Origin: Escherichia phage HY01
Reading direction: 5' to 3' (one strand)
Sequence record: NC_027349.1
Length of the DNA stretch: 64,000 bases
Under the pieces are notes generated by a model. The model had not been told where the DNA came from. It was given only the letters and a program-made list of their open reading frames with translations, and did no database searches. The position numbers and the translations under genes were made by a program. Below, piece after piece: positions 5,829-63,048 of the stretch. How positions within the stretch are numbered: position 1 is the first letter of the stretch; each line of letters opens with the position of its first letter.

Positions 5829-6260
5829 TTATTCCTTAAAGTGAGCTTTCAACATCTGATACAAGGACCATGCTTGTTCATTATTTTCAATAGTAACTTT
5901 CATTACCGGGAATTCAGATGGTTCAGTTACTGGTGCAGGGTCTTCCTGCTCTTCAGCAGCCTGATATGGATTTTCCACTTCATTAAAGAACTCGGCTTCG
6001 TTGCTAGAAAGCCAGATAAAGTTTTCGTCAATGACTGTACCTCGTGATGAATATCCAACTATGCCAGTAGATGTCACAATTTTAGTAGGACGCCCGTAAT
6101 AGTCAACATCTAAAATTTTAAAAGGTTCCATACCTAAACGCCGCGCATAGATTCCGTTATCAGTATGGTCTTTAATAAAATTTTCTTGAGCTTGTTTATT
6201 TTTGAATTGATACCATTTATTAACTTCAAATTTAATAGCCATTAATAAATTTCCTTCCAA
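5829..6260 (-). CDS. goF: GoF-like protein (mRNA metabolism modulator), assigned by position
   Basis: 143-aa ORF in the T4 goF position between 39.2 and cef. Confidence 0.5.
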
Positions 6261-6457
6261 TAAGTTGTGCCATTTTCAGTAATTTCACGAAATACACCAT
6301 AAATTGGTTGTTTATCACCGACTTTCTCATACACATAAACAGAAGTCAAGTGAGTAAACTTGCTAGTATGTTCCTTTTGAACTACTACCAAATTTGGATC
6401 AAATAATACATCTTCAAATTCATCATTAGTGCAATTCTGAACAATTTTACGTTTCAT
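6242..6457 (-). CDS. cef: Cef-like protein (modifier of suppressor tRNAs), assigned by position
   Basis: 71-aa ORF; size and position match T4 cef. Confidence 0.5.
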
Positions 6458-6628
6458 TACAATTTCCTCATTAATTAAACATTGGAGCGATGCGTTTCAG
6501 AAGAGTATCAGCACCTTTGGCGAATTTCCATTTTATTCTCCAAGTTGTTTTCTGTATCAGTAGTTGATATTGATATAGTACCACAATCAACTACTGATGT
6601 ATATAGTTTTATGAAAAAATTTTAAACT

Positions 6629-7126
6629 TTATGCACAGCGAGCTTTGCTATAGTGTTTAATCCAACTTTCAGGAATGACTTTGTATGTTCCTAAAAATAC
6701 CGCGTTGTACAGCTTAACACCATCTTCTACCCACTGATCGGTAATGTATGCACACATAGCGCGAGTACGGCGTTTTTGAACAACCCCTTCCTCATCTTCA
6801 GTAAATTCGAATTCATAAGGAGCAACGAACTTAATAGCCTGACCGAGTTTCCACTTAAAGTCTACACCTACATGCGAAGTATCAATCGTTTCAATTCCTT
6901 TAGCAGGAACAGCTTTCAAAAATGCAGGTTCAAGAAATTTCGCGCGAACATAACCAAACTGAGGCTTAGACTTTCCATCTTTAGGAATGATACGCACTTT
7001 TACTTCAGAATCTTCATCTTTAACACCATGCTTAAGCTGAATGCTTACAATTTCGACCAATTTTCCTGCTGCTTTAGAACGGGATTTATCAGATACACGA
7101 GCAATTTCACCAATATTAATAATCAT
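6629..7126 (-). CDS. motB: MotB-like protein
   Basis: 165-aa ORF in the motB position; C-terminal motif ITDQWVEDGVKLYNAVF shared with the next ORF. Confidence 0.55.
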   Translation of the reverse strand: MIINIGEIARVSDKSRSKAAGKLVEIVSIQLKHGVKDEDSEVKVRIIPKDGKSKPQFGYVRAKFLEPAFLKAVPAKGIETIDTSHVGVDFKWKLGQAIKFVAPYEFEFTEDEEGVVQKRRTRAMCAYITDQWVEDGVKLYNAVFLGTYKVIPESWIKHYSKARCA

Positions 7127-7170
7127 AGTTATCTCTCACTTGTTAAAAAGATTTTATACTCCACAGGACC

Positions 7171-7200
7171 ATTATACTCTGGTCCCAAGAGTTTGTAAAC
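7171..7200 (-). promoter_or_regulatory. early promoter upstream of motB
   Basis: GTTTAC-18 nt-TATAAT on the minus strand; -10 flanked by GGACC/GGTCC inverted repeat. Confidence 0.55.
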
Positions 7201-7750: not shown

Positions 7751-8290
7751 TTATCTCATTTCAATAAAATCTACGAGTTCAGCATGCGATTTGCGGAACA
7801 TTACTTGGTGCCCACCAATGATAACTTCATCTTCAGGAACTTCGTATACAGCGAGATAAAATCCTTTAGAAGATAATTCTTCCCGCTCTTCTCGTGTGAA
7901 CCATCTCATCATATCATATTCGCTAGCGAAAGCAAAATGATAAAGAGCTATAAACCATCCTGGAATATGATATTCTACTCCAACATAATCTTTCTTGAAC
8001 TTAGTATTAATTACTATATTAGCGTTTTTAACTAACAGTTTATCTTCATGTGGTACAGGAATTCTTTTATTATCATCACTATGATGCATAAAATTAGGTC
8101 TGTCATAACCTACGTGTAATAGCCACTCTTCGCTCCATGAATCTATTATACTCCTGTATGGCGTTATTTGAACACAAAGATTTCGACGTATTGTTATAGC
8201 ATCTTCATAATTAAGAATACTAAACGATGATTCAACACGATAAATTTTCATTTTATTATCCTCAGTAGCTATGATGTTATAATACCACAA
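7751..8290 (-). CDS. hypothetical protein
   Basis: 179-aa ORF with an early promoter upstream (about 8277-8308). Confidence 0.4.
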   Translation of the reverse strand: MWYYNIIATEDNKMKIYRVESSFSILNYEDAITIRRNLCVQITPYRSIIDSWSEEWLLHVGYDRPNFMHHSDDNKRIPVPHEDKLLVKNANIVINTKFKKDYVGVEYHIPGWFIALYHFAFASEYDMMRWFTREEREELSSKGFYLAVYEVPEDEVIIGGHQVMFRKSHAELVDFIEMR

Positions 8291-8314
8291 CTAACCGAGG
8301 AAGTAAACAGCTTT

Positions 8315-25011: not shown

Positions 25012-25109
25012 GGATGTAAACAGTTTTGCGAAAAAATTTTTAATGAATTCCAGAGGTCCAGAATCATCTATTTTTCCTAAGTATAGATTTATATTACTTG
25101 TATGAAAAA

Positions 25110-47142: not shown

Positions 47143-48159
47143 CTAGTTTAGTGCATTTAGTGCATTGTTCAGTTTAGAACGTTGCTTCGTAAGATTTTTG
47201 ACTTTTTCTTGAGCTTTTTCTAGCATCTTTTCAGCTTCTAACACTTCATTAGTTGCTTTAACTAGTTCATCATCTACTGCTTTAAGAGAATTCTCAATCG
47301 CATCTGCATGCCATTTTTCAACAGGTTTAAGACTCGGATTTTCAACAGGAAGAAAATTCACTTTATTGAATTTCCATGCATCCTTATTACCTGAACTATA
47401 CATCCAAAATTTAGGATCGTTTGATGAGTAATTGGATAAATTTAAATTTAAGTTATCTTGCACTTCTTGCTTTTTCTCTTGCGTGACTTCATCCTTTCTC
47501 AAAAAATCGTATTTAAATGAAACGATCATATCAAGTTCATATGTTGTTGTGTCTAATAAACGAGGTAAAATCTTAGACTGAACAGCGGCAACAACATCCA
47601 TATACTTAAATGCTTCTGTCAACTGCGATTTAAGGCATTCGCAAATTGAAAGAGAATTTTTTGTATTAGGTTTAAAGCTAATTCGTGCAGTTCTGTTATT
47701 TTCTTTTAATGGTCTTACTTCCATCTGAAGAGTATAACCATCAAATTTCAAGTTCTTTAAGTTAATATCAGAACCTTTTAATCGACTCGCAGTTGATAAA
47801 ATTTGCTTTAATTGTCTACGGAACAGAGCAATAAATCTCCATTCAATACGATAATGATTTGGATTGAAAAATCCAGATGATAAATCGACCTTACTTTGAC
47901 CAACGCCTTGAACAAATAAAGGATTTTTATAATCAATAGTTTTACAGAAATCGGTGAGTTGCTCACGAGCAGTCATTTGTGTAATATATCCCGCTTTACT
48001 AAAATTACGCACCCATTCACTGCTATTCGTATACTTAAAGTGATGAATAACACGATTAACTTTATCAGGGTCTAAATTATTTTCACACAAAAATGTCATA
48101 ACATCACAAGTATAACTGGCATTACGAACCATATCTTCAATTTGAGAACGAGTTTTCAT
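47143..48159 (-). CDS. member 3 of the tandem paralogous family
   Basis: 338 aa; motif RIEWRFIALFRRQLKQILSTASRLKG; coiled-coil tail. Confidence 0.45.
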   Translation of the reverse strand: MKTRSQIEDMVRNASYTCDVMTFLCENNLDPDKVNRVIHHFKYTNSSEWVRNFSKAGYITQMTAREQLTDFCKTIDYKNPLFVQGVGQSKVDLSSGFFNPNHYRIEWRFIALFRRQLKQILSTASRLKGSDINLKNLKFDGYTLQMEVRPLKENNRTARISFKPNTKNSLSICECLKSQLTEAFKYMDVVAAVQSKILPRLLDTTTYELDMIVSFKYDFLRKDEVTQEKKQEVQDNLNLNLSNYSSNDPKFWMYSSGNKDAWKFNKVNFLPVENPSLKPVEKWHADAIENSLKAVDDELVKATNEVLEAEKMLEKAQEKVKNLTKQRSKLNNALNALN

Positions 48160-50056: not shown

Positions 50057-50084
50057 TTTGTGTTCCTCCGTAGTTGATAGTTGT

Positions 50085-50114
50085 ATAGTACCACAGAGGA
50101 ACAGTCTTGTAAAC
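50085..50114 (-). promoter_or_regulatory. early promoter with conserved -10/leader module
   Basis: GTTTAC-18 nt-TACTATA-CAACTATCAACTAC. Confidence 0.5.
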
Positions 50115-51525: not shown

Positions 51526-51556
51526 TATAGTACCATAAAGCTTTATGCTTGTAAAC
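51526..51556 (-). promoter_or_regulatory. early promoter with conserved -10/leader module
   Basis: GTTTAC-18 nt-TACTATA-CAACTATCAACTACTGATACAG. Confidence 0.5.
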
Positions 51557-51615
51557 TGTTTTGTGAAAAAATTTTTGAAATAAAAAGGGGCCTTTAGGGC
51601 CCCCTTTGTGTTGAT

Positions 51616-55731: not shown

Positions 55732-55760
55732 ATGGAAAGTAAACCGGTAAAATGAAAAAA

Positions 55761-55776
55761 GTCTCCCGAAGGAGAC
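55761..55776 (-). terminator. intrinsic terminator after rI.-1
   Basis: GUCUCC-UUCG-GGAGAC followed by U6. Confidence 0.65.
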
Positions 55777-55781
55777 TAATG

Positions 55782-59880: not shown

Positions 59881-59939
59881 GTTATTCTCCTCTTAACTGA
59901 TAGAAAAATTATACCACAGTCAAGAGGAAAAGTAAACAG

Positions 59940-62989: not shown

Positions 62990-63048
62990 TTTATCCCTCC
63001 AAGTAACTGTGAATATACTATCACAATTCTAGGAGAAAGTAAACCACT

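Follow-up and report, generated by a model that had tools for sequence, protein, structure and literature searches.

A predicted early promoter enclosed in a conserved stem-loop between motB and cef of a T4-like phage

The window, the whole stretch of 64,000 nucleotides analyzed here, belongs to the Tequatrovirus Escherichia phage HY01 (NC_027349.1). Its G+C content is about 35%, and its GC skew is negative throughout, placing the genes on the minus strand. A 1.6-kb region surrounding the element described below is 100% identical to Escherichia phage PEC04 and 93-99% identical to hundreds of Tequatrovirus genomes, including RB32, and a 261-nt intergenic stretch shows ~95-96% identity to T4, T2, and T6. 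The element is located in the 171-nt spacer between motB and cef. In minus-strand order its parts read AAAATTTTTTCATAAAAC-T-ATATAC-ATCAGTAGTTGAT-TG-TGGTA-CTA-TATCA-AT-ATCAACTACTGAT-ACAGAAAACAACTTGGAGAATAAAATG, and the features of the locus are as follows.

6629 to 7126, minus strand: motB coding sequence, the upstream gene (ORF list and annotation of the identical PEC04 and RB32 records)
6631 to 6629, minus strand: motB stop codon TAA, ~30 nt before the hairpin
6606 to 6623, minus strand: A/T-rich UP-like block AAAATTTTTTCATAAAAC, seen in the sequence and common to other early promoters, for example upstream of 51556 and 25021
6599 to 6604, minus strand: degenerate -35 hexamer ATATAC (4/6), from a by-eye alignment with the 51556 promoter; other copies have GTTTAC
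6586 to 6598, minus strand: upstream (5') arm ATCAGTAGTTGAT, promoter positions -30 to -18, a 13-mer unique in the window
6575 to 6583, minus strand: extended -10, TGG plus TACTAT (hexamer 6580-6575), at the hairpin apex
6571 to 6583, minus strand: hairpin apex in the fold, inner stem UGGUA (6583-6579)/UAUCA (6575-6571) and loop CUA (6578-6576)
6556 to 6568, minus strand: downstream (3') arm ATCAACTACTGAT, whose first base, 6568, is the predicted +1
6508 to 6541, minus strand: GGAG Shine-Dalgarno (6541-6538) and ATG (6531-6529) of a 7-codon remnant ORF, from the sequence and comparison with T2 and RB3
6242 to 6457, minus strand: cef coding sequence, the first intact gene downstream (ORF list and PEC04/RB32 annotation)

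The ATG at 6531-6529 is the start of an 89-amino acid ORF in T2 and RB3. This ORF (phrog_3720, function unknown) lies between cef and the promoter, which would drive it, in T2, RB3, and many other isolates (L004 471-740; L006 404-673). The window, T4, and T6 lack ~209 nt of its interior, and the deletion junction shows AAAA microhomology. The remnant (6471-6531, minus strand) comprises the Shine-Dalgarno sequence and ATG, a frame of 7 codons, and the 3' end of the ORF, which is out of frame. On the other side of the element, the upstream gene is not motB in RB3 and in two metagenome contigs (L182 and L183), and the alignment looks like a gene replacement ending at the promoter cassette. At the junction in these three, a duplicated GCATAAA lies just before the UP-like block (L006 260-310).

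A perfect inverted repeat is present at 6556-6598, as a previous reading of the letters alone (hereafter the sequence-only reading) had reported, and is longer than the 11 bp given there. The repeat comprises 13 bp, with arms ATCAGTAGTTGAT and ATCAACTACTGAT occupying 6556-6568 and 6586-6598 in plus-strand numbering and 17 nt between them, and extends to 20-nt arms of 85% complementarity around a 3-nt center. No other perfect inverted repeat in the 64-kb window reaches 13 bp with a loop of 3-40 nt; 0.07 per window would be expected by chance in first-order Markov sequences. The corresponding hairpin has 18 bp, made up of the 13-bp stem, a 2x2 internal loop, a 5-bp inner stem, and a 3-nt loop. 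Folding confirmed the earlier expectation that it would be stable in DNA or RNA, giving -21.3 kcal/mol for RNA (z -5.5, with 0 of 200 shuffles as low) and -11.4 kcal/mol for DNA (z -5.2). The 13-mer of the 3' arm, ATCAACTACTGAT, recurs as the initial transcribed sequence of the 51556 early promoter, which lacks the repeat.

Because no U-tract follows the stem (GAUACAGAAAAC here and UAUCAAAACAA in other genera), the cef hairpin is not a canonical intrinsic terminator. A scan for terminators between 5500 and 8500 returned no entry for it, and the sequence after the stem is ACAGAAAAC. An Rfam search returned no family at its gathering score. The only match, mir-217, had an E value of 0.13, far below its gathering score, and was taken as chance.

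T4 early promoters carry UP elements and the consensus GTTTAC at -36 to -31, TGn, and TAnnnT. The cef site has the TGn, the TAnnnT, the UP region, and a -35 to TACTAT spacing of 18 nt, the same as in 18 canonical GTTTAC promoters of the window; its -35 is degenerate. On this comparison the feature is a predicted sigma-70-type early promoter between motB and cef. Run lengths in the UP-like block differ among Tequatrovirus isolates. The GenBank record of T4 has no annotated promoter features. From the T4 early-promoter numbering (GTTTAC at -36 to -31, hexamer at -12 to -7), we infer a start site at 6568, 7 nt after the -10 hexamer. The hairpin then spans -30 to +13 and encloses the -10, with the -35/-10 spacer as its 5' arm. 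As this arm lies upstream of the predicted +1, RNA initiated at the promoter would be without the hairpin, which is therefore possible only in RNA reading through from motB. Such read-through would come from the predicted motB promoter at 7200 and from further upstream. The GGAG and ATG of the remnant ORF lie 15 and 25 nt past the stem, which ends at 6556, and both are outside it.

The sequence-only reading had also described a motif recurring 18 nt after a shared -35 GTTTAC, taken as an early-promoter -10 with its initial transcribed sequence. A motif search found TGGTACTATACAACTATCAAC 18 nt after GTTTAC at three minus-strand sites (extended -10 at 25000-24991, 50093-50084, and 51535-51526), together with a weaker copy at 55723-55714 and the variant TGGTACTATAtCAAtATCAAC at cef. 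The motif fits the T4 early consensus when the two are compared. The shared GTTTAC holds for the other copies but not for cef, where the -35 is ATATAC. A version of the reported motif with an additional N had no match; the shared string is TGGTACTATACAACTATCAAC.

The element is present in T4, T2, T6, RB3, RB32, and other Tequatrovirus phages. A search matched 535 phage records, 488 of which were at least 95% identical over 59 nt. Across 21 distinct sequences, variation affects 3 of the 43 positions in the hairpin, compared with 22 of 60 in the flanks (30 nt on each side). Both variants within the arms replace A with G, so that an A-U pair becomes G.U in the sense strand; one is in the 5' arm (SholemSchwarzbard) and one in the 3' arm (Lv5cm). 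Nine Tequatrovirus metagenome contigs found with a 26-base anchored pattern had invariant arms and added no covariation. A 14-nt loop pattern run against IMG/VR gave mostly chance matches and only one T4-like contig.

Orthologous sites in other Tevenvirinae were located via similarity to the cef protein. In other genera the spacer from stop codon to ATG is only 50-75 nt and is filled by promoter and leader. Here too, an early promoter occupies the short interval between motB and cef, and its -10 forms a hairpin loop, but the stems differ, as listed here.

Mosigvirus: GGTCTATG/TATAGACC
Dhakavirus: GGTAGGGTAGTG/TATTACCCTATC, with three G.U pairs
Kanagawavirus: GGTGTAGG/CCTACACC
Karamvirus: GGGCTATG/TATAGCCC
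Gelderlandvirus: GGGTTATG/TATAACCC
IMG/VR contigs: GGTAGGAGCGTG/TATGCTCCTACC, GGTGTAGGAG/CTCCTACACC, and GGTAGAAGACTGTG/TATGGTCTTCTACC

Gaprivervirus is also among the genera in which the structure is kept and the sequence is not. The orthologous stems have 8-14 bp and end 8-15 nt before the Shine-Dalgarno sequence. The -35/-10 spacer and the discriminator and leader would be the sole parts free to vary, and a hairpin built from these two would necessarily enclose the -10.

Covariation was assessed in 23 distinct sequences aligned on the -10, for a 14-pair helix joining -21 to -14 with -9 to -2. Standard pairs filled 76% of the cells, against 64.9 ± 1.3 in shuffles (0 of 500 reached the observed value), a figure that, like the sense-strand bias below, is somewhat inflated, since any promoter with TGn plus TAnTAT automatically provides the pairs U(-15)-A(-8) and G(-14).U(-9). 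Double-sided changes were found at 9 of the 14 pairs (6.5 ± 1.0 in shuffles; 4 of 500 as high) and in 46 cells (16.8 ± 3.8; 0 of 500), all counted on a helix that was read off the same 23 sequences. Slid registers were at most 49% paired. The axis of the Tequatrovirus hairpin lies ~2.5 bp further downstream than that of the other genera, and its pairs are for this reason not positionally homologous to theirs.

In 21 of the 23 orthologues, RNA of the sense strand forms a more stable fold than the antisense, by a mean of 2.5 kcal/mol, because a G.U pair on one strand is A.C on the other. A count of G.U versus A.C over all 14 columns was uninformative, as columns beyond the short stems add noise, and the folding comparison was used instead. 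The VR25-like phages (L141 and L175-177) keep GATAGGGTA-ATTTT-GCCCTATC, clearly homologous to the Dhakavirus hairpin, and have neither GTTTAC nor TGn-TAYTAT at the hairpin. The hairpin thus outlives the promoter. One clade (L172-174) has a small spacer hairpin in place of a -10-enclosing one. Taken together, the covariation, the sense-strand bias, and the retention of the helix after promoter loss argue that a helix in the sense RNA has been under selection.

Scanning with GTTTAC-N17-19-TAnn[AT]T detected 18 sites on the minus strand, to which the cef promoter was added as the 19th. Most of the 19 are preceded by an A/T-rich block, carry TG two bases ahead of the hexamer, and are followed 20-35 nt downstream by a Shine-Dalgarno sequence with ATG. 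The modules at 25021, 50114, and 51556 are near-identical and form a repeated family in the same genome. The region from -30 to +20 of each promoter was folded, and -10-enclosing hairpins at or below -17 kcal/mol were counted. Such hairpins were found at six of the 19 promoters: 63044, 59937, 50114, 8308, 7200 (motB), and 6604 (cef). Their z-scores are -4.2 to -8.0 with spacer and leader shuffled separately, and of 342 chimeras in which a spacer was joined to another promoter's leader, only 2.3% attain -17 kcal/mol. In all six, folding favors the sense strand by 3.6-13.9 kcal/mol. The five hairpins other than that of cef are comparably stable but imperfect, so the motif is not embedded in such a structure once, as the sequence-only reading had it. 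An overall test of pairing between the upstream 50 nt and the promoter's own leader was not significant across all promoters (Mann-Whitney p 0.10), because anti-Shine-Dalgarno-like spacers pair with any leader; the local folds with separate shuffling and chimera controls replaced it.

At four of the six promoters (63044, 59937, 50114, and 8308), the 3' arm contains the promoter's own Shine-Dalgarno sequence. These hairpins (62992-63040, 59885-59933, 50062-50110, and 8255-8303, minus strand) fold at -18 to -21 kcal/mol and have the -35/-10 spacer as their 5' arm. According to the predicted structures, the ribosome site would be paired in RNA reading through these promoters from upstream and unpaired in promoter-initiated RNA. 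The motB hairpin holds a GGAG other than the motB Shine-Dalgarno, and the cef hairpin holds none. The same promoter-in-hairpin design is found at the motB-upstream orthologues in JS10 and VR25, and a Mosigvirus promoter has a 13-bp perfect repeat that includes its Shine-Dalgarno sequence.

Promoter-early stem-loops (PeSLs) were defined in phages RB49 and phi1, where the stem-loops are described as "overlapping the -10 box" and are proposed to terminate or attenuate upstream transcription; a part in the modular exchange of genes was also ascribed to PeSLs (Arbiol et al. 2010, PMC2839356). The one stem-loop tested there matched rrnB T1; it came from RB49/phi1 and is G/C-rich, unlike the cef type. 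A later paper extended PeSLs to the T4/PST pair and placed the stem-loops there immediately before the promoter (Comeau et al. 2014, PMC4122927).

PeSLs combine an intergenic sigma-70-type early promoter, an A/T-rich upstream region, and a downstream Shine-Dalgarno sequence and ATG with a stem-loop that has G-T pairs and overlaps the -10 box; they form repeated families of ~100 bp and are linked to gene gain, loss, and replacement between close relatives. At cef, a stable stem-loop overlaps an early promoter between an upstream stop codon and a downstream Shine-Dalgarno/ATG, and the promoter cassette belongs to a repeated family of the same genome. Insertions, deletions, and replacements distinguish close relatives here, and gene content differs on both sides of the element, as reported for PeSLs. 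The cef element belongs to the published PeSL class, for which an attenuation role has been proposed. It also differs from the described members. The RB49/phi1 stems that overlap the -10 are of the polyG/polyC type, whereas the cef stem is A/U-rich, reaches +13, and lacks a U-tract; and covariation at one orthologous site across genera is absent from the PeSL descriptions in the accessible portions of the two papers. Within this published class, the cef stem-loop encloses the -10 and is supported by covariation between genera at one orthologous site.

The late promoters of T4 genes e, soc, 49, and I-TevI likewise lie inside a hairpin that only the longer upstream RNA folds (Uzan and Miller 2010, PMC3014915). 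Those are late promoters, however, and their stem holds the Shine-Dalgarno sequence and/or the AUG, whereas the cef hairpin holds neither; the Shine-Dalgarno-in-stem feature is matched instead by the four other early promoters of the window described above. A looser parallel is offered by promoter-coupled terminators of bacteria (Fletcher et al., bioRxiv 10.64898/2026.08.19.745784), in which the termination and initiation signals of tandem units share a short intergenic DNA. In these the stem-loop is at the -35, a T-tract borders on the -10, and the RNA 3' end falls ~10 bp short of the start site; at cef, the -10 itself makes up the loop and no T-tract is present.

We consider it probable, at roughly 60%, that the cef element is an early promoter inside a PeSL-type stem-loop that serves as an RNA boundary element for read-through transcripts. 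The two sequence-free parts of the promoter, the -35/-10 spacer and the discriminator running into the first transcribed bases, are complementary to each other, with the constrained -10 as the loop. Transcription from the cef promoter would start on the first base of the 3' arm, leaving its RNA without a hairpin; in RNA that reads through from motB, the complete stem-loop (-21 kcal/mol) would follow the motB stop codon by ~30 nt. As for the effect on read-through RNA, the hairpin could pause or attenuate transcription, possibly assisted by Rho, and/or could act as a 3'-protective helix for the motB message after downstream cleavage. The GGAG 15 nt beyond the stem is a candidate cleavage site, RegB being known to target GGAG in early mRNAs. 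In that case, expression of the cef-goF group would depend chiefly on its own promoter. The effect need not equal that of the other hairpins in the window, because the cef hairpin, unlike four of the other five, contains no Shine-Dalgarno sequence. Of the two roles suggested by the sequence-only reading, an operator or an RNA-processing site, the latter is partly right insofar as the element would act at the RNA level as a stem-loop, although its restriction to read-through RNA, its recurrence, and its published class had been missed.

The operator role, in which a dimeric DNA-binding protein of phage or host would occupy the two 13-bp half-sites and repress or time the promoter, is very improbable. 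A perfect repeat that straddles -30 to +13 with half-sites ~30 bp apart center to center has the appearance of such a site, and MotB, encoded directly upstream, binds DNA and could have a high-affinity site. No sequence specificity was seen for MotB, however. A protein half-site would conserve sequence, the opposite of the observed pattern: the arms are wholly different between genera, with complementarity maintained by double changes; G.U pairs, which are mismatches in duplex DNA, are tolerated; the register shifts between genera; and the 3' arm is an initial transcribed sequence held in common with the repeat-less 51556 promoter. Action of the repeat in DNA, or its origin there as a by-product without RNA function, is rather unlikely. 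It might be a recombination hotspot, a cruciform of the PeSL mini-circle exchange type, or a quasipalindrome perfected by template switching, as the differing gene content on both sides and the unusual perfection of the Tequatrovirus repeat would suggest. The compensatory changes across genera and the persistence of the helix after promoter loss point instead to selection on pairing, and the G.U bias of the sense strand favors RNA; in the single deletion that was examined, the AAAA microhomology ends are inside the downstream ORF and not in the hairpin.

Among RNA functions, translational masking would have the read-through hairpin hide a ribosome-binding site, so that only promoter-initiated RNA is translated. 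The promoter-inside-hairpin geometry is that of T4 e, soc, 49, and I-TevI, and the promoters at 63044, 59937, 50114, and 8308 have their own Shine-Dalgarno sequence in the 3' arm. At the cef site, by contrast, the GGAG and AUG are 15 and 25 nt beyond the stem, and the stems of other genera also stop 8-15 nt short of the Shine-Dalgarno sequence; the defining feature of masking is therefore missing, and masking is an unlikely function of this hairpin. Cleavage of polycistronic early RNA between motB and cef by an endonuclease such as RNase III is improbable to a similar degree. RNase III sites consist of about two helical turns (around 20 bp) of double-stranded RNA, and the 18-bp Tequatrovirus helix with its symmetric internal loop resembles phage RNase III sites. 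The orthologous stems of only 8-14 bp would be too short for this enzyme, however, making such a site unlikely as the general function, and no Rfam family matched at gathering score.

The boundary-element reading can be extended, tentatively and with more doubt than confidence, to the proposal that about a third of T4-like early promoters are deliberately placed inside hairpins, so that read-through RNA is structurally unlike promoter-initiated RNA, its Shine-Dalgarno sequence being masked or a boundary helix being formed. If this is true, each early gene would answer mainly to its own promoter, the classic mechanism of the late genes e, soc, and 49 would extend to the early class, and PeSL stem-loops would gain a post-transcriptional role instead of or besides termination. 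The cef element shows that the 'free' parts of a promoter, its spacer and initial transcribed region, can encode an RNA structure unique to upstream transcripts. Were the hairpins to insulate neighboring early units, this would bear on the separation of immediate-early from read-through (delayed-early) expression in T4, an old open point, and would explain how PeSL cassettes move genes without disturbing their neighbors. The cef case is one more example of a published class, -10-enclosing hairpins recur in the same window, and the cef element, being unchanged in T4, is present in the best-studied phage.

Several minor observations concern the locus and its sister promoters. In a fold of the 241-nt read-through RNA (minus strand), AAUUUUUUCAU of the UP-like block (6611-6621) pairs with AUGAGGAAAUU (6460-6472) in the cef Shine-Dalgarno region through 11 pairs, two of them G.U. 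This may be due to chance in A/U-rich sequence, and the partners are far apart in phages that keep the 89-amino acid ORF. The motB promoter is enclosed by a GGGACCA/TGGTCCT stem (7150-7195, minus strand), and the stems differ in JS10 and VR25 (L137 80-158; L141 151-229). The GGAG after the motB stem reads GGAGAATAAA in JS10 and VR25, with no start codon nearby, and the real motB Shine-Dalgarno lies ~30 nt beyond the hairpin GGAG, which could be a vestigial translation start or a RegB target.

Canonical G+C-rich hairpin terminators with a T-run lie directly upstream of four early promoters (55744, 52177, 51556, and 15377, minus strand), giving composites of the type described by Comeau et al. 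Two of these terminators lie at about 55760-55777 and 51584-51604, and in this arrangement the T-run merges into the UP region. Upstream terminators (four promoters) and -10-enclosing hairpins (six) never occur at the same promoter, an exclusion that is not significant with 19 promoters. The spacer of the 51556 promoter (51533-51550, minus strand) differs in placement from the cef repeat. Finally, an identical module beginning GTTTACTTTGCCACAAGGATGTGGTAT is found at 47143 and 2458 (minus strand) with a small spacer hairpin, CCACA-AGGA-TGTGG, and recurs nearly unchanged as the cef promoter of distant Klebsiella-phage-like contigs (L172-L174).
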